A DNA stretch of 64,000 nt from Escherichia coli. Its GTDB lineage: Bacteria > Pseudomonadota > Gammaproteobacteria > Enterobacterales > Enterobacteriaceae. Where the stretch lies: NCBI RefSeq assembly GCF_030013595.1, contig NZ_CP122768.1; one strand, 5' to 3'. The notes under the pieces were generated by a model. It saw only the letters and a list, made by a program, of their open reading frames with translations. It searched no databases and was not told the origin of the DNA. Of this stretch, positions 1 to 59,704 are shown one piece after another (position 1 is the first letter of the stretch; every line of letters starts with the position of its first letter). The position numbers were made by a program, and so were the translations under genes.

Positions 1-982
1 TACGCCGCCGCCGAAAATGGGGACGACGTCTACAGCTCAGCAACCGCAAATTCAGCCGGTACAGCAGCCACAAATTCAGGCAACTCAACAACCGCAAATC
101 CAGCCGGTGCAGCCAGTAGCTCAGCAGCCGGTACAGATGGAAAACGGACGCATCGTCTACAACCGTCAGTATGGGAACATTCCGAAAGGCAGTTATAGCG
201 GCAGTACCTATACCGTGAAAAAAGGCGACACACTTTTCTATATCGCCTGGATTACTGGCAACGATTTCCGTGACCTTGCTCAGCGCAACAATATTCAGGC
301 ACCATACGCGCTGAACGTCGGTCAGACCTTACAGGTGGGTAATGCTTCCGGTACGCCAATCACTGGCGGAAATGCCATTACCCAGGCCGATGCAGCAGAG
401 CAAGGAGTTGTGATCAAGCCTGCACAAAATTCCACCGTTGCTGTTGCTTCGCAACCGACAATTACGTATTCTGAGTCTTCGGGTGAACAGAGTGCTAACA
501 AAATGTTGCCGAACAACAAGCCAACTGCGACCACGGTCACAGCGCCTGTAACGGTACCAACAGCAAGCACAACCGAGCCGACTGTCAGCAGTACATCAAC
601 CAGTACGCCTATCTCCACCTGGCGCTGGCCGACTGAGGGCAAAGTGATCGAAACCTTTGGCGCTTCTGAGGGGGGCAACAAGGGGATTGATATCGCAGGC
701 AGCAAAGGACAGGCAATTATCGCGACCGCAGATGGCCGCGTTGTTTATGCCGGTAACGCACTGCGCGGCTACGGTAATCTGATTATCATCAAACATAATG
801 ATGATTACCTGAGTGCCTACGCCCATAACGACACAATGCTGGTCCGGGAACAACAAGAAGTGAAGGCGGGGCAAAAAATAGCAACCATGGGTAGCACCGG
901 AACCAGTTCAACACGCTTGCATTTTGAAATTCGTTACAAGGGGAAATCCGTAAACCCGCTGCGTTATTTGCCGCAGCGATAA
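1..982 (+). CDS. nlpD: NlpD murein hydrolase activator lipoprotein, 5' end truncated by the window edge (LysM-like segment and C-terminal M23/LytM-like domain)
   Basis: Open frame runs from the window edge to TAA at 980-982; translation ...[18 protein letters not shown]... matches NlpD as I recall it; the ATG at 17 in the ORF track is internal. Confidence 0.93.
20..140 (+). repeat. Imperfect tandem ~21-24 bp repeats encoding a Gln/Pro-rich linker (QQPQIQP units) inside nlpD
   Basis: Direct reading: repeated cag-caa/cca-ccg-caa-att-cag-ccg-gt units giving [25 protein letters not shown]. Confidence 0.45.
444..472 (+). promoter_or_regulatory. Candidate main rpoS promoter inside nlpD (-35 ttgctt 444-449, 17-bp spacer, -10 tattct 467-472)
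   Basis: Hexamers with 17-bp spacing; predicted start ~479 gives a ~566-nt leader to the rpoS ATG at 1045, matching the known long rpoS 5' UTR (from memory). Confidence 0.55.
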
Positions 983-1044
983 ATCGGCGGAACCAGGCTT
1001 TTGCTTGAATGTTCCGTCAAGGGATCACGGGTAGGAGCCACCTT

Positions 1045-2037
1045 ATGAGTCAGAATACGCTGAAAGTTCATGATTTAAATGAAGATGCGGAATTTGATGA
1101 GAACGGAGTTGAGGTTTTTGACGAAAAGGCCTTAGTAGAAGAGGAACCCAGTGATAACGATTTGGCCGAAGAGGAACTGTTATCGCAGGGAGCCACACAG
1201 CGTGTGTTGGACGCGACTCAGCTTTACCTTGGTGAGATTGGTTATTCACCACTGTTAACGGCCGAAGAAGAAGTTTATTTTGCGCGTCGCGCACTGCGTG
1301 GAGATGTTGCCTCCCGCCGCCGGATGATCGAGAGTAACTTGCGTCTGGTGGTAAAAATTGCCCGCCGTTATGGCAATCGTGGTCTGGCGTTGCTGGACCT
1401 GATCGAAGAGGGCAACCTGGGGCTGATCCGCGCGGTAGAGAAGTTTGACCCGGAACGTGGTTTCCGCTTCTCAACATACGCAACCTGGTGGATTCGCCAG
1501 ACGATTGAACGGGCGATTATGAACCAAACCCGTACTATTCGTTTGCCTATTCACATCGTAAAGGAGCTGAACGTTTACCTGCGAACCGCACGCGAGTTGT
1601 CCCATAAACTGGACCACGAACCAAGTGCGGAAGAGATCGCAGAGCAACTGGATAAGCCAGTTGATGACGTCAGCCGTATGCTTCGTCTTAACGAGCGCAT
1701 TACCTCGGTAGACACCCCGCTGGGTGGTGATTCCGAAAAAGCGTTGCTGGACATCCTGGCCGATGAAAAAGAGAACGGTCCGGAAGATACCACGCAAGAT
1801 GACGATATGAAGCAGAGCATCGTCAAATGGCTGTTCGAGCTGAACGCCAAACAGCGTGAAGTACTGGCACGTCGATTCGGTTTGCTGGGGTACGAAGCGG
1901 CAACACTGGAAGATGTAGGTCGTGAAATTGGCCTCACCCGTGAACGTGTTCGCCAGATTCAGGTTGAAGGCCTGCGCCGTTTGCGCGAAATCCTGCAAAC
2001 GCAGGGGCTGAATATCGAAGCGCTGTTCCGCGAGTAA
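1045..2037 (+). CDS. rpoS: RNA polymerase sigma factor RpoS (sigma-S/sigma-38), 330 aa
   Basis: Translation [34 protein letters not shown]... with sigma-70 family regions; the track ORF from 1009 is a 5' over-extension; codon 33 is GAG. Confidence 0.96.
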
Positions 2038-2054
2038 GTAAGCATCTGTCAGAA

Positions 2055-2089
2055 AGGCCAGTCTCAAGCGAGGCTGGCCTTTTTCTTTT
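2055..2089 (+). terminator. Intrinsic terminator downstream of rpoS
   Basis: Stem aggccag(2055-2061)/ctggcct(2074-2080) followed by tttttctttt. Confidence 0.7.
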
Positions 2090-2157: not shown

Positions 2158-2565
2158 CTATTTGCTCATCATCTTGCGCACCAACTGCATAAACAGCTCC
2201 TTCTCTTCTGCACTCAAACGCCCCAAAAATTCCTCATCCACACTGTCACCAATGGGGATCGCCGCAGCAAGTACCTTTTCTCCTTCGGCAGTCAGCCAGA
2301 CAAAGCGACGCCGCTTGTCAGCGGCGTCATGTTCACGTCTGACTAAGCCACGATTTTCCATTCTTGCCAACATTTCTGCCAGCGTTGCTTTGGTGCTGAC
2401 TGCTGCTTCTATCAGTGCCACCTGTTCGATACCAGGCTTATCAGCAATGGCGCGCATCACCGCGTACTGTGGTTTGGTGAGGTCAGGTAACTCGTGCTGC
2501 CAGCGAGCCGTGTGCTGCTGAAAAAGCTGTCGTAACTGATGGAACGCTTTATTTCGTAACGCCAT
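2158..2565 (-). CDS. MarR-family winged-helix transcriptional regulator, divergent from the decarboxylase operon
   Basis: Translation MALRNKAFHQLRQLF...DKRRRFVWLTAEGEKV has a MarR-type wHTH; start chosen at ATG 2565 because of GGAG Shine-Dalgarno 6 nt upstream; the track start at 2598 lacks one. Confidence 0.8.
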   Translation of the reverse strand: MALRNKAFHQLRQLFQQHTARWQHELPDLTKPQYAVMRAIADKPGIEQVALIEAAVSTKATLAEMLARMENRGLVRREHDAADKRRRFVWLTAEGEKVLAAAIPIGDSVDEEFLGRLSAEEKELFMQLVRKMMSK

Positions 2566-2680
2566 GTAAACTCCGGGCAAACTATCTGCCGCTATCATAG
2601 CGGTTTTTCAGTGACGAAGAAGATGTTGTTACTTTTCAGTGCTTGCCGCGATGAAAACAGAGGCGTATTTTAATAATGAC

Positions 2681-2694
2681 GTTCGTATACGAAC
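2681..2694. promoter_or_regulatory. Perfect 14-bp palindrome gttcgtatacgaac, candidate operator for the adjacent MarR-type regulator
   Basis: Exact inverted repeat 18 bp upstream of the ATG at 2712, inside the divergent promoter region. Confidence 0.45.
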
Positions 2695-2711
2695 AATTAA
2701 GAGAATAAACA

Positions 2712-3305
2712 ATGAGACTGATCGTCGGGATGACAGGGGCTACCGGTGCGCCTCTTGGGGTGGCATTACTGCAAGCGCTGCGGGAGATGCCGAATGTCGA
2801 GACTCATCTGGTGATGTCGAAGTGGGCGAAAACCACTATTGAACTGGAAACGCCTTACAGCGCTCGCGATGTTGCCGCCCTCGCAGACTTCAACCATAAC
2901 CCGGCGGATCAGGCGGCGACTATCTCTTCCGGCTCCTTTCGTACCGACGGCATGATCGTTATTCCATGCAGTATGAAAACGCTCGCCGGTATCCGCGCTG
3001 GTTACGCCGATGGTCTCGTGGGGCGCGCGGCGGACGTCGTGCTCAAAGAAGGCCGCAAACTGGTGCTGGTGCCGCGTGAAATGCCGCTTAGCACAATCCA
3101 TCTCGAAAATATGCTCGCACTTTCGCGCATGGGCGTGGCGATGGTGCCGCCGATGCCTGCCTTTTATAACCATCCCGAAACGGTAGATGACATTGTCCAC
3201 CACGTGGTAGCCCGCGTGCTGGATCAATTTGGCCTCGAACATCCTCACGCCAGGCGCTGGCAAGGATTGCCGCAGGCCCGGAATTTTTCTCAGGAGAATG
3301 AATAA
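2712..3305 (+). CDS. ecdB: UbiX/Pad1-family flavin prenyltransferase, subunit B of a hydroxyarylic acid (phenolic acid) decarboxylase
   Basis: Translation MRLIVGMTGATGAPLGVALLQAL... typical of UbiX-like proteins; first gene of a B-C-D operon; symbol by analogy to ecdBCD/kpdBCD naming, as recalled. Confidence 0.85.
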   Translation: MRLIVGMTGATGAPLGVALLQALREMPNVETHLVMSKWAKTTIELETPYSARDVAALADFNHNPADQAATISSGSFRTDGMIVIPCSMKTLAGIRAGYADGLVGRAADVVLKEGRKLVLVPREMPLSTIHLENMLALSRMGVAMVPPMPAFYNHPETVDDIVHHVVARVLDQFGLEHPHARRWQGLPQARNFSQENE

Positions 3306-4732
3306 TGGCATTTGATGATTTACGCAGCTTTTTACAGGCGCTTGATGACCACGGCCAGTTACTGAAAATCAGCGAAGAGGTGAACGCGGAACCGGATCTG
3401 GCAGCCGCTGCCAACGCCACCGGACGTATCGGCGATGGTGCACCGGCGCTGTGGTTTGACAATATTCGCGGCTTTATCGATGCCCGCGTGGCAATGAATA
3501 CCATCGGTTCCTGGCAGAACCACGCGATTTCCCTCGGCCTGCCGCCAAACACCCCGGTTAAAAAGCAGATTGATGAGTTTATCCGCCGCTGGGATAACTT
3601 CCCCATTACCCCGGAGCGCCGCGCCAATCCAGCCTGGGCGCAGAACACCGTCGATGGCGACGAGATCAACCTGTTCGATATTCTGCCGCTGTTTCGTTTA
3701 AACGACGGTGATGGCGGTTTCTATCTCGATAAAGCGTGCGTGGTTTCCCGCGATCCGCTCGACCCGGATAACTTCGGCAAGCAGAACGTCGGCATCTACC
3801 GCATGGAAGTGAAGGGCAAACGTAAGCTCGGCCTGCAACCGGTGCCGATGCACGATATCGCTCTGCATCTGCATAAAGCGGAAGAACGCGGTGAAGATCT
3901 GCCGATTGCCATCACCCTGGGTAACGATCCGATCATCACCCTGATGGGCGCCACGCCGCTGAAATACGATCAGTCTGAGTACGAAATGGCGGGCGCGCTG
4001 CGCGAAAGCCCGTACCCGATCGCCACCGCCCCGCTGACCGGTTTTGATGTGCCGTGGGGCTCGGAAGTGATCCTCGAAGGGGTTATCGAAAGTCGTAAAC
4101 GTGAGATTGAAGGGCCGTTCGGTGAGTTTACCGGTCACTACTCCGGCGGGCGTAACATGACCGTGGTGCGTATCGATAAAGTCTCTTACCGTACCAAACC
4201 GATTTTCGAATCGCTCTATCTTGGTATGCCGTGGACCGAAATCGACTACCTGATGGGGCCTGCCACCTGCGTGCCGCTGTATCAGCAACTGAAAGCCGAG
4301 TTCCCGGAAGTGCAGGCGGTAAACGCCATGTACACCCACGGCCTGTTGGCGATTATCTCCACCAAAAAACGCTACGGCGGCTTTGCCCGCGCGGTGGGCC
4401 TGCGTGCAATGACCACGCCGCACGGTCTGGGCTACGTGAAGATGGTGATTATGGTCGATGAAGACGTTGATCCGTTCAACCTGCCGCAGGTGATGTGGGC
4501 GCTCTCCTCGAAAGTGAACCCGGCAGGCGACCTGGTGCAGTTGCCAAATATGTCCGTGCTGGAACTCGACCCTGGCTCAAGCCCGGCGGGGATCACCGAC
4601 AAGCTGATTATCGACGCCACCACGCCTGTCGCCCCGGACAACCGTGGTCACTACAGCCAGCCGGTGGTGGATTTACCGGAAACCAAAGCCTGGGCTGAAA
4701 AACTGACTGCTATGCTGGCCGCACGTAAATAA
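3305..4732 (+). CDS. ecdC: UbiD-family decarboxylase, catalytic subunit C of a hydroxyarylic acid decarboxylase
   Basis: 475-aa ORF with UbiD-like sequence; start overlaps the upstream stop (ATAATGG), indicating translational coupling. Confidence 0.85.
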   Translation: MAFDDLRSFLQALDDHGQLLKISEEVNAEPDLAAAANATGRIGDGAPALWFDNIRGFIDARVAMNTIGSWQNHAISLGLPPNTPVKKQIDEFIRRWDNFPITPERRANPAWAQNTVDGDEINLFDILPLFRLNDGDGGFYLDKACVVSRDPLDPDNFGKQNVGIYRMEVKGKRKLGLQPVPMHDIALHLHKAEERGEDLPIAITLGNDPIITLMGATPLKYDQSEYEMAGALRESPYPIATAPLTGFDVPWGSEVILEGVIESRKREIEGPFGEFTGHYSGGRNMTVVRIDKVSYRTKPIFESLYLGMPWTEIDYLMGPATCVPLYQQLKAEFPEVQAVNAMYTHGLLAIISTKKRYGGFARAVGLRAMTTPHGLGYVKMVIMVDEDVDPFNLPQVMWALSSKVNPAGDLVQLPNMSVLELDPGSSPAGITDKLIIDATTPVAPDNRGHYSQPVVDLPETKAWAEKLTAMLAARK

Positions 4733-4742
4733 GGAGAACAAG

Positions 4743-4979
4743 ATGATTTGTCCACGTTGTGCCGATGAACAGATTGAAGTGATGGCGAAATCGCCGGTGA
4801 AAGATGTCTGGACGGTCTACCAGTGCCAGCATTGCCTTTATACCTGGCGCGATACCGAACCGCTACGCCGCACTAGCCGCGAACATTATCCCGAAGCGTT
4901 CCGCATGACGCAGAAAGATATTGATGACGCGCCGATGGTGCCGAGCATCCCGCCGCTGCTGGCGGAAGGTAAGCGCTAA
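4743..4979 (+). CDS. ecdD: Small subunit D of the hydroxyarylic acid decarboxylase (Cys-rich, 78 aa)
   Basis: MICPRCADEQ...CQHC motif; position and size match the small D subunit of B-C-D operons; AAGGAG Shine-Dalgarno upstream. Confidence 0.75.
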   Translation: MICPRCADEQIEVMAKSPVKDVWTVYQCQHCLYTWRDTEPLRRTSREHYPEAFRMTQKDIDDAPMVPSIPPLLAEGKR

Positions 4980-29401: not shown

Positions 29402-30175
29402 TTGAACATCAGAACAGGGATGTGCGCTTTTTTATTGAGCTTAGTGCTGCCTGCACAGGCCACCAGCTTTACCGAATATCTGCCGATGAGTGACAGCGAA
29501 TACGCGCAAAAGCGGGCGCTGAAACCTCTCCTGACCATGCCTTATGATGCCGAGCAAAACTGGCATTTTAGAAAAGTCGGCGTTGCTGGCGTGACGCTTG
29601 AAAAGATGCCAAATGATGATAGTGAATGGCAATTGAACGGTAAAGATCGCGCCGGTAAATCCTGGTCTGTGCCTGTGGGGGTGCTGCAAAATATGGCGGG
29701 TAATGCGCAACTTTACCGTGCCGATCTTGATCGTAACGGCATTCAGGATCTAGTTATCTGGCGGGGTATTTCAGGAAATGGTCTGGCACCTAACGCGTTT
29801 TTGATTCTGATGACCTTTAATCAGCAAGGTCGCCCGTGTGTTTTTCAGTCCGATGGTTTTTATACCGCAAGTGAAACTGGCATTGATGATTTGCTGGATT
29901 TACAAAGGAATGGCCACACGCAATTGCTGGATATGCAGTTTGATTCCGGTTACTGGATAACCAGTCTGTATCAGGTAAAAGACGCCAAATGGCAGCGTGT
30001 TCACGGCTGGTTTGGCAAGTTAAGCTATCCCGCGCTCACGCGTTTTACTTATACCCCCAACCGTAAACTCGTCCTCAAACCCATCGCCGGGCGCGACCCG
30101 CAATCGGAAGATCTGGCGCTGACGCAGCGTTGCTTGATAAAGGGGGATGTGCTTTATGGGGTGAATCAGAACTGA
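29402..30175 (+). CDS. Uncharacterised predicted secreted protein (~257 aa) with N-terminal signal peptide and two Asp-rich D-x-D/Q-x-N-G loops
   Basis: n-region with Arg, hydrophobic core CAFLLSLVL, AQA|TS cleavage site; motifs ADLDRNGIQDLVIW and LDLQRNGHTQLLD; start ambiguous between TTG 29402 and ATG 29420; only 24 bp after the hycI stop with no terminator. Confidence 0.6.
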   Translation: MNIRTGMCAFLLSLVLPAQATSFTEYLPMSDSEYAQKRALKPLLTMPYDAEQNWHFRKVGVAGVTLEKMPNDDSEWQLNGKDRAGKSWSVPVGVLQNMAGNAQLYRADLDRNGIQDLVIWRGISGNGLAPNAFLILMTFNQQGRPCVFQSDGFYTASETGIDDLLDLQRNGHTQLLDMQFDSGYWITSLYQVKDAKWQRVHGWFGKLSYPALTRFTYTPNRKLVLKPIAGRDPQSEDLALTQRCLIKGDVLYGVNQN

Positions 30176-30237
30176 CTTTTTGCAGAGTGGCTATGTGGAT
30201 TTTGGGGGTAATTATATAGCGTACAAGTGTTTACATA

Positions 30238-30266
30238 TTGTGAACTTTGATTTGATGAGCTATAGT
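30238..30266 (+). promoter_or_regulatory. Candidate sigma-70 promoter for the HigBA-like pair (-35 ttgtga, 17-bp spacer, -10 tatagt)
   Basis: Hexamers in an AT-rich spacer ~70 bp upstream of the toxin ATG. Confidence 0.4.
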
Positions 30267-30336
30267 TTCCGAACACATAAGGATAGAACTCGCAGATGTG
30301 GCTGTTTACTTACTATAAGGAAGTTAAAACTTAAAA

Positions 30337-30648
30337 ATGCACATCATTTCTAAAGCGCCATTTGAAGAGTGTGCGCGCAAATATCCTAACGACGCTCTGG
30401 CTCTACACTCATTGTATCGGGTTATTAAGGAAACGGATTTTTCTACACCAGAAGAAATGCGAACGGCGTTTCCCAACCTCGACAATTTTAGATATCGCAA
30501 CAAATGGTACGTTCTGGATGTCGGCGGGAACAATCTTAGGGTTATTGCCTACATAAACTTTGTTAATAAGCGGTTCTTTGTGAAGCACATAACGAATCAC
30601 GCAGAGTATGACAAACTGACACGTTACTACAGAGAGAACAAAGAATGA
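30337..30648 (+). CDS. HigB-family type II toxin (RelE/ParE-fold mRNA interferase), 103 aa
   Basis: MHIISKAPFEECARKYP...FPNLDNFRYRNKWYVLDVGGNNLRVIAYI... resembles HigB/YgjN-type toxins; toxin gene precedes the antitoxin with a 4-bp ATGA overlap. Confidence 0.8.
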   Translation: MHIISKAPFEECARKYPNDALALHSLYRVIKETDFSTPEEMRTAFPNLDNFRYRNKWYVLDVGGNNLRVIAYINFVNKRFFVKHITNHAEYDKLTRYYRENKE

Positions 30649-31064
30649 CTGCTAATGCTGCACGCGCTGTTAAAGCAACAAGAGAACTGGTCAATGCAGT
30701 CCCCTTTCTGGGAGGTAGTGACTCAGAAGATGATTATCGTGAAGCACTGGAACTGGTCGAATATTTGATTGAAGAAGATGACACCAATCCACTTATCGAC
30801 TTTCTGGCGAGCCGCATTGCAGAGTATGAAAGCAACAACGAAAAGTTTGCAGAGTTCGACAAAGCCGTTGCTGCAATGCCGGTTGGCGTGGCGTTACTTC
30901 GTACGCTGATTGATCAACATAATCTGACCTACGCGGATTTGAAGAACGAAATCGGCTCTAAATCCCTGGTCAGTCAGATTTTGTCTGGGCAACGATCCCT
31001 GACGATATCCCACATTAAGGCACTTTCAGCCCGATTTGGTGTTAAGCCGGAATGGTTTCTTTGA
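30645..31064 (+). CDS. HigA-family antitoxin (XRE-type HTH at the C-terminus), 139 aa
   Basis: ...GSKSLVSQILSGQRSLTISHIKALSARFGV... HTH segment; translationally coupled to the upstream toxin. Confidence 0.8.
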   Translation: MTANAARAVKATRELVNAVPFLGGSDSEDDYREALELVEYLIEEDDTNPLIDFLASRIAEYESNNEKFAEFDKAVAAMPVGVALLRTLIDQHNLTYADLKNEIGSKSLVSQILSGQRSLTISHIKALSARFGVKPEWFL

Positions 31065-54851: not shown

Positions 54852-54944
54852 GGTGAGGTGGCCGAGAGGCTGAAGGCGCTCCCCTGCTAAGGGAGTATGC
54901 GGTCAAAAGCTGCATCCGGGGTTCGAATCCCCGCCTCACCGCCA
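54852..54944 (+). tRNA. serV: tRNA-Ser (anticodon GCU), 93 nt including CCA
   Basis: Cloverleaf with long variable arm; anticodon loop cuGCUaa; ends ...ccgcctcaccgcca. Confidence 0.93.
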
Positions 54945-54947
54945 TTT

Positions 54948-55024
54948 GCATCCGTAGCTCAGCTGGATAGAGTACTCGGCTACGAACCGAGCGGTCGGAG
55001 GTTCGAATCCTCCCGGATGCACCA
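54948..55024 (+). tRNA. tRNA-Arg (anticodon ACG), 77 nt, copy 1
   Basis: gcatccgtagctcagctggatagagtactcggctACGaaccgagcggtcggaggttcgaatcctcccggatgcacca; 3 nt after tRNA-Ser. Confidence 0.93.
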
Positions 55025-55139
55025 TATTCTACGTACTTTCAGCGATGAAGGTATAGAAGAGGTGGCGGTAATAACCGCAGGCACCAGGGAGGATAACGTT
55101 GCTTTAGCAACGGCCCGAAGGGCGAGCCGCAAGGCGAGT

Positions 55140-55158
55140 AATCCTCCCGGATGCACCA
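55140..55158 (+). other. 19-nt 3'-terminal fragment of tRNA-Arg (aatcctcccggatgcacca) in the long spacer
   Basis: Exact match to the last 19 nt of the intact copies; upstream sequence diverges. Confidence 0.7.
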
Positions 55159-55222
55159 TCTCTTACTTGATACGGCTTTAGTAGCGGTATCAAAAAATCT
55201 GCAGTAAAGTAAGTTTCCCGAT

Positions 55223-55299
55223 GCATCCGTAGCTCAGCTGGATAGAGTACTCGGCTACGAACCGAGCGGTCGGAGGTTCGAATCCTCCCGGATGCACCA
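55223..55299 (+). tRNA. tRNA-Arg (anticodon ACG), 77 nt, copy 2
   Basis: Identical to copy 1. Confidence 0.93.
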
Positions 55300-55401
55300 T
55301 ATTCTCCGTAATCATCAGTGATGATGGTTAAGATGGATTTTCTTATTTGATATGGCTTTAGTAGCGGTATCAATATCAGCAGTAAAATAAGTTTTCCCGA
55401 T

Positions 55402-55478
55402 GCATCCGTAGCTCAGCTGGATAGAGTACTCGGCTACGAACCGAGCGGTCGGAGGTTCGAATCCTCCCGGATGCACCA
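55402..55478 (+). tRNA. tRNA-Arg (anticodon ACG), 77 nt, copy 3
   Basis: Identical to copy 1. Confidence 0.93.
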
Positions 55479-58316: not shown

Positions 58317-58389
58317 AAAAAGGCCACTCGTGAGTGGCCAAAATTTCATCTCTGAATTCAGGGATGATGATAACAAATGCGCGTCTTTC
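58317..58389 (-). ncRNA. micA: MicA (SraD) Hfq-dependent small RNA, ~73 nt
   Basis: Reverse strand reads GAAAGACGCGCATTTGTTATCATCATCCCTGAATTCAGAGATGAAATTTTGGCCACTCACGAGTGGCCTTTTT, ending in a terminator hairpin (58322-58339) plus U-run; sits between gshA and luxS. Confidence 0.9.
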
Positions 58390-59109: not shown

Positions 59110-59568
59110 TTACTTACGGCCCGTAAACGGGCTGCCCGGATAGGGAATCGATAACTGATCTCCCATTTTATCCTCTTCAAGCTGGTGCTTTATGTAATCC
59201 TGTATCTTCGCCGTGTTCTTACCCACTGTATCGACGTAGTACCCTCTGCACCAGAACTCCCTGTTCCTGTATTTGAATTTCAAATCACCAAACTGCTCGT
59301 AAAGCATCAGACTGCTTTTCCCTTTCAGATATCCCATAAACCCGGATACGCTCATTTTGGGCGGGATCTCCACAAGCATATGGATATGATCTGCACAGCA
59401 TTCAGCTTCCAGAATCCGTACGCTTTTCCACTCACACAGCTTTCTCAAAATACTGCCTATTGCTCTACGCTTCTCTCTGTAGAACACCTGTCTTCGGTAT
59501 TTTGGCGCAAAAACTATGTGATATTTACAGTTCCATCGGGTGTGCGCTAAGCTCTTTTCGTTCCCCAT
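59110..59568 (-). CDS. tnpA: IS200-type transposase TnpA (HuH single-strand transposase), 152 aa
   Basis: MGNEKSLAHTRWNCKYHIVFAPKYRR...CCADHIHMLVEIPPK...YVDTVGKN (HuH and catalytic Tyr region); the track ORF is extended 17 codons. Confidence 0.92.
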   Translation of the reverse strand: MGNEKSLAHTRWNCKYHIVFAPKYRRQVFYREKRRAIGSILRKLCEWKSVRILEAECCADHIHMLVEIPPKMSVSGFMGYLKGKSSLMLYEQFGDLKFKYRNREFWCRGYYVDTVGKNTAKIQDYIKHQLEEDKMGDQLSIPYPGSPFTGRK

Positions 59569-59573
59569 TGGGA

Positions 59574-59643
59574 CCCCCTTTTGATTTCTTGTTTGACACT
59601 TGCAGTTGCCAGACCGCAAGGTGTTTTAACAAATCAAAAGGGG
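59574..59643 (-). promoter_or_regulatory. Long imperfect stem-loop in the tnpA leader that pairs with the Shine-Dalgarno sequence
   Basis: cccccttttgattt (59574-59587) pairs with aaatcaaaagggg (59631-59643); the tnpA Shine-Dalgarno lies in the 3' arm, as described for IS200. Confidence 0.6.
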
Positions 59644-59680
59644 TTTTAATAACTGGCTCAAAGCTGAAAGCTTTCCGGAA

Positions 59681-59704
59681 CCCCCAGCCTAGCTGGGGGT
59701 TTTC
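59681..59704 (+). repeat. Subterminal hairpin at the tnpA-proximal end of the IS200-like element (cccccagcctagctggggg + tttt)
   Basis: 19-nt palindrome matching the other end hairpin in architecture. Confidence 0.6.

Follow-up and report, generated by a model that had tools for sequence, protein, structure and literature searches.

Codon 33 of rpoS is GAG in a non-K-12 Escherichia coli chromosome, most probably the standard natural allele

Codon 33 of rpoS is a site at which laboratory and natural strains of Escherichia coli are known to vary, and a GAG codon read there raises the question of what it can tell us about the gene and about the chromosome that carries it. K-12 stocks have TAG, CAG, TAT or GAG at this codon and natural non-K-12 isolates commonly have GAG, according to PMC2700278, which cites Atlung 2002 and Subbarayan & Sarkar 2004; all ten of the verotoxigenic strains sequenced there have GAG (PMC2700278), as do all isolates of PMC1852560. 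We address this question in the window, by which we mean the whole stretch of 64,000 nucleotides of E. coli DNA that was analysed. An earlier note on this DNA had proposed that codon 33 is GAG, that the gene is full length, and that both facts argue for an intact RpoS from a non-K-12 background. We propose that the window rpoS is the standard wild-type allele of natural E. coli (rpoS33E), with Glu33 ancestral and the polymorphism peculiar to the laboratory K-12 lineage, and we put the probability of this reading at roughly 95%.

The codon is read directly from the sequence. Counted from the ATG at 1045, codon 33 begins at 1141 (1045 + 32 x 3), and the local reading GTA GAA GAG GAA CCC gives V31 E32 E33 E34 P35 within the protein context KALVE-E33-EPSDND, which is the glutamate codon that had been claimed for this position. 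The numbering is fixed because a Shine-Dalgarno sequence lies at the expected place 5' of this ATG (Table 1), and the same start codon is used in the RefSeq annotation of rpoS in MG1655, PCN033 and HCP5S3_I2; another in-frame ATG, at 1009 in the mechanical list of open reading frames, is used by neither the annotations nor the profiles. The reading of a single codon is deterministic, so a chance test does not apply to it. Translation yields 330 residues with a single terminal stop and is free of internal stops, frameshifts and insertions. The upstream neighbour nlpD ends at 982, an arrangement shared with MG1655 and PCN033, which places the gene in the conserved enterobacterial context of RpoS.

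Table 1. Coordinates of the features discussed, in window positions.
Feature	Position	Strand	Remarks
nlpD, 3' part	1..982	+	cut by window start; conserved upstream neighbour of rpoS
Putative PrpoS hexamers, TTGCTT (444-449) and TATTCT (467-472)	444..472	+	placed from published start site
Putative rpoS 5' UTR, 567 nt	478..1044	+	from promoter inside nlpD; window position placed from published start site
Shine-Dalgarno TAGGAG	1031..1036	+	8 nt 5' of ATG; read from sequence, presumed role in ribosome binding
rpoS coding sequence	1045..2037	+	330 codons and TAA stop at 2035-2037
rpoS codon 33	1141..1143	+	GAG (Glu)
Terminator-like hairpin followed by T run	2051..2084	+	just 3' of rpoS stop; 15-pair stem, 7 G-C pairs
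rpoS-proximal insert, not in K-12	2158..4979		two parts, ygbN beyond; RefSeq annotation of near-identical genome
MarR/SlyA-like regulator	2158..2565	-	part of rpoS-proximal insert
Hydroxyarylic acid decarboxylase subunits B, C, D	2712..4979	+	part of rpoS-proximal insert
hycI-ascB interval: 251-aa hypothetical protein, HigB-family toxin, helix-turn-helix antitoxin-like gene	29420..31064		RefSeq annotation of near-identical genome
tRNA array, Ser(GCU) and three Arg(ACG)	54852..55478		
Antisense tRNA-Arg(TCG) call (ARAGORN)	54968..55039		overlaps first Arg gene; probably spurious
MicA sRNA	58318..58389	-	luxS-gshA region
IS200-family element	~59110..59701		between luxS and emrB
IS200 transposase ORF	59110..59619	-	mechanical ORF list
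Match to Rfam STnc490	59578..59701		leader upstream of IS200 transposase; 146 bits

The identity of the protein is equally plain. It scores 604.6 bits against the NCBIfam equivalog NF004207 (cutoff 394), with residues 1-329 on profile positions 1-329, and 480.7 bits against TIGR02394 (cutoff 378.7), which places it within that family. Alignments to PDB chains of 6KJ6, the 5IPL series and 6OMF span residues 1-330, at E-values near 1e-210, and the codon 33 numbering used here agrees with both the NF004207 alignment and the PDB chains of E. coli sigma-S. The full-length gene that had been claimed encodes exactly WP_000081550.1, the same protein that is annotated in PCN033, ECO_2_R and HCP5S3_I2; in a cluster look-up this exact sequence is recorded on at least 1,000 contigs, under source names that include 'MULTISPECIES: RNA polymerase sigma factor RpoS [Enterobacteriaceae]'. 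The nucleotide sequence of the window rpoS is in turn 100% identical in PCN033 and five other genomes.

Alignment with rpoS of K-12 MG1655 (NC_000913.3) isolates codon 33 as the only coding difference. The two genes differ at 9 of 993 bases, and eight of the nine differences, at codons 88, 90, 119, 168, 183, 188, 191 and 273, are synonymous. The ninth falls on the first base of codon 33, G in the window vs C in MG1655, so that the window encodes Glu and MG1655 Gln (CAG). This alignment, which had been suggested as a check, confirms the numbering and the position of the polymorphism, and it leaves the window rpoS outside the class of K-12 laboratory alleles with CAG or TAG at codon 33.

The allele frequencies can be counted. 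Three versions of a 73-mer (codon 33 with 35 nt on either side) were compared with 5,426 complete E. coli genomes. Since a genome with one mismatch in the 73-mer drops below the 99% identity band, the top band holds exact matches, and the counts are of such matches rather than a per-genome tally of RpoS proteins. Among 5,414 matching genomes, the exact 73-mer with GAG occurs in 4,814, with CAG in 173 and with TAG in 121. GAG is carried by roughly nine in ten complete E. coli genomes. A further 163 genomes match the GAG 73-mer at 90-95% identity; in the one checked, ECO_2_R, the flanks have five synonymous changes while GAG is kept and the protein is WP_000081550.1, which suggests from this single case that the class consists of distinctly diverged rpoS alleles under strong purifying selection. 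About 140 genomes lie outside all the counted classes, and the one inspected, 13E0780 (98.6% match), has GAG at codon 33, yet has a GAA to TAA change at codon 27.

Among the genomes listed, the minority alleles follow K-12. Of the 60 of 173 CAG genomes listed, those named are K-12 or laboratory strains (MG1655 and its derivatives, BW25113, DH10B, MC4100, BW2952, RV308 and DHB4), and the remainder have the genome size and rpoS position of MG1655. The 60 of 121 TAG genomes listed are mostly named K-12 laboratory strains (W3110, EMG2, WG1, J53, NCM3722, AG100, HMS174, S17-1); a few bear field-type names, but their genome sizes are J53-like. The exception is BLR(DE3), a B strain, which received about 85 kb around recA, amber rpoS included, from K-12 (PMC5454202). 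K-12 derivation of all CAG and TAG genomes, beyond these 60 of 173 and 60 of 121, is an extrapolation; by extension from the 120 listed, nearly all genomes without K-12 ancestry may carry GAG. The statements that codon 33 is a known polymorphic site, with CAG or TAG in K-12 lineages and often GAG in natural isolates, are thereby upheld, both by the counts and by PMC2700278.

Which state came first is shown by relatives outside E. coli. Glu33 is ancestral and the K-12 alleles are derived, because these relatives have Glu or Asp at this position: among members of the 90% cluster, Escherichia albertii and Leclercia adecarboxylata have E33, and the aligned residue is E in Hafnia alvei and D in Sodalis. 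Within the same cluster, Gln33 is confined to the K-12 sequence and a single ENA contig, which has a further substitution. We propose that a G-to-T change early in K-12 would have turned GAG into the amber codon TAG, and that later single-base changes would have turned TAG into sense codons such as the CAG (Gln) of MG1655. This likely order of mutation, from GAG through TAG to CAG and others, fits the presence of TAG in the early K-12 stocks EMG2 and WG1 and also fits PMC2700278. The window rpoS would never have undergone this history. It has GAG at codon 33, an uninterrupted frame of 330 codons, the majority allele and a residue shared with relatives outside E. coli, which together place it in the rpoS33E class.

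The chromosome around the gene speaks to its background without recourse to codon 33. Over its first 25 kb the window matches two pig faecal isolates, HCP5S3_I2 and LCP30S3_I5, at 100.0% identity and the remaining complete E. coli genomes at 98.8% or less; against HCP5S3_I2, 20 substitutions are scattered over 50 kb, none of them before 2678. Downstream of rpoS, about 2.98 kb separates the gene from ygbN, vs 93 nt in MG1655, so the mutS-rpoS region is not of the K-12 type. The intervening DNA is a 2.9-kb rpoS-proximal insert in a region known to be a mosaic (PMC4209514). With the insert and ygbN both present, the region is reminiscent of the larger 'pattern IV' described in PMC4209514. A non-K-12 background is established independently of codon 33 by the eight synonymous differences in rpoS, the 2.9-kb insert and an identity below 99% over 25 kb to all but two genomes. 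The non-K-12 origin that had been argued from the codon is hence borne out by its surroundings, whereas GAG alone would be insufficient to exclude K-12, in which reversion of the amber allele to GAG has been reported (PMC2700278).

Other parts of the window also differ among strains. The hycI-ascB interval carries three genes (Table 1) that look like a small strain-variable insertion; in K-12 hycI adjoins ascB, and K-12 is not known to have a HigB/antitoxin pair at the corresponding site. Toward the end of the window, the spacer before the third Arg tRNA is 39 nt longer than in HCP5S3_I2. An IS200-family element with an STnc490-like leader lies between luxS and emrB, and MicA is found in the luxS-gshA region.

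The upstream region of rpoS is close to that of K-12. The 1,044 nt 5' of the gene differ from MG1655 by 13 substitutions and zero indels, and none of these falls in the 161 nt that directly precede the ATG and contain the ribosome binding site. The transcription start of rpoS lies 567 nt 5' of its ATG (PMC10948607), and the corresponding leader in the window would differ from MG1655 at four positions (751, 760, 862 and 883). The published start site also allows us to place candidate PrpoS hexamers within nlpD. A consensus scan of 1-2700 found no sigma-70-like site and so neither supports nor refutes this assignment, and an Rfam scan at gathering thresholds found zero families in the rpoS leader. 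The leader hairpin and the small-RNA pairing site of rpoS also fall within the invariant 161-nt stretch.

Within the putative -35 hexamer, base 448 is T in the window and G in MG1655, PCN033, 13E0780, ECO_2_R and FDAARGOS_1058. The change is synonymous in nlpD (third position, GCT vs GCG) and occupies position 5 of the presumed hexamer (TTGCTT vs TTGCGT). An exact 73-mer with T448 is found in 325 of 5,418 complete genomes, and IAI39, SMS-3-5, CE10 and an ST648 strain are among them. T448 is a lineage polymorphism rather than a private mutation, and it looks like a lineage marker.

Residue 33 itself lies in an acidic, poorly conserved and loosely constrained N-terminal tail of sigma-S. Of residues 10-46, 17 of 37 are Asp or Glu; in the RpoS alignment the first ~70 residues are variable and residues 72-314 almost invariant, and the more distant PDB RpoS chains (7F0R, 7VF9) align from residue 52 onward only. 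The residue sits outside the conserved regions that contact core polymerase and promoter DNA. Both variants are found in PDB entries with RpoS-labelled chains, E33 in the 5IPL series (19 entries) and Q33 in 6KJ6. In function, E33 and Q33 are not necessarily equivalent in the strict sense.

Three other accounts of the locus have to be weighed against this reading. Since some K-12 strains have GAG at codon 33 (PMC2700278), the window might come from a K-12 derivative whose amber codon TAG had reverted to GAG, as in some K-12 stocks. We consider this exceedingly improbable and reject it on the flanking sequence: reversion of one codon would account for neither the eight synonymous rpoS differences and 13 upstream substitutions relative to MG1655, nor the MarR and decarboxylase genes that occupy 2.9 kb where K-12 has 93 nt, nor the restriction of 99% identity over 25 kb to two genomes, each from a pig isolate. 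The HigB/antitoxin pair, which K-12 is not known to have at that site, points the same way. A second account accepts the coding sequence as intact and supposes that RpoS function is nonetheless attenuated, through transcription (for example by T448 in the putative -35 element), translation, proteolysis, or mutations elsewhere in rssB, crl or hfq. Attenuation of rpoS is common and takes many forms, and three null alleles were met in this work; the deviation of base 448 from MG1655 and four other strains gives it a possible local cause. We nevertheless regard it as quite unlikely here, as T448 is common to hundreds of genomes, neither G nor T at base 448 matches the -35 consensus, the final 161 nt of the leader with the ribosome binding site are as in MG1655, and the window protein is the commonest RpoS sequence. 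The null alleles themselves illustrate how frequently rpoS is lost in sequenced isolates, having arisen independently among a few sampled genomes: the codon 27 stop (GAA to TAA) of 13E0780, the frameshift of FDAARGOS_1058, where 16 bp at codons 27-32 are duplicated in tandem, and the ISEcp1 element inserted near codon 32 in 2020N21-246-1.

The remaining account concerns the residue. If the charge at residue 33 tuned the level or activity of sigma-S, E33 and Q33 would be non-equivalent and GAG would encode a sigma-S physiologically distinct from that of MG1655. The authors of PMC5405132 remark that RpoS expression seemed somewhat higher with the residue 33 change, and Atlung's view, as relayed in PMC1852560, ties 33E strains to more variable rpoS phenotypes. 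Against this, introduction of Gln33Glu into K-12 rpoS left HPII catalase activity and glycogen unchanged (PMC5405132), and the residue belongs to a poorly conserved acidic tail in which relatives have Asp or Glu. Even if the two forms did differ, it is K-12 that would have the unusual one, and we judge the idea unlikely. That residue 33 tuning sigma-S abundance and T448 shifting rpoS transcription might jointly set the balance of stress protection against nutritional competence in this lineage differently from the K-12 reference is a speculation that we hold to be very unlikely. The standard natural allele remains our preferred reading: the strain would make a full-length sigma-S of the commonest sequence, from an essentially K-12-like leader, on a non-K-12 chromosome nearly identical to that of a pig faecal isolate.

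What can be said of function is more limited. RpoS is probably active in the window strain, as far as an open frame and its leader allow us to predict. The earlier note's description of RpoS as intact holds for the coding sequence, whereas activity is not readable from sequence and depends as well on rssB, crl, hfq and small RNAs, whose loci the window does not include. The nearest evidence on activity is published: K-12 RpoS with Gln33Glu is fully active (PMC5405132).

The codon 33 observation is correct but ordinary, and the polymorphism was already known. It matters little beyond annotation, in that the RpoS of the window is the normal natural form. Its practical side is that the Gln33 of MG1655 and the amber codon of W3110-type strains are laboratory peculiarities, to be kept in mind when K-12 serves as the variant-calling baseline for natural isolates. 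The counts over 5,426 complete genomes also bring up to date the figures for a polymorphism whose first description drew on about twenty strains.

Set beside known forms of the protein, the window RpoS differs little. It is identical to WP_000081550.1 at all 330 residues, with zero differences at the protein level. Comparison with the 5IPL chain shows changes at residues 2 and 329 and six extra residues at the C-terminus, and identity elsewhere. With RpoS of K-12 MG1655 (NP_417221.1, RPOS_ECOLI) it shares its length and 329 of 330 residues, the one difference being E33 in the window and Q33 in MG1655. The nlpD-rpoS arrangement, the ribosome binding site and the proximal leader are likewise the same in both, whereas the downstream neighbour of rpoS is the MarR and decarboxylase insert in the window and ygbN in MG1655. 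Another contrast is with the K-12 amber allele rpoSam (TAG; W3110, EMG2, WG1, J53 and, via transduction, BLR(DE3)), which lowers sigma-S activity (PMC5454202): the codon position and both flanking 35-mers are identical, and a sense codon stands in the window where rpoSam has its stop, so that a full-length sigma-S is encoded.
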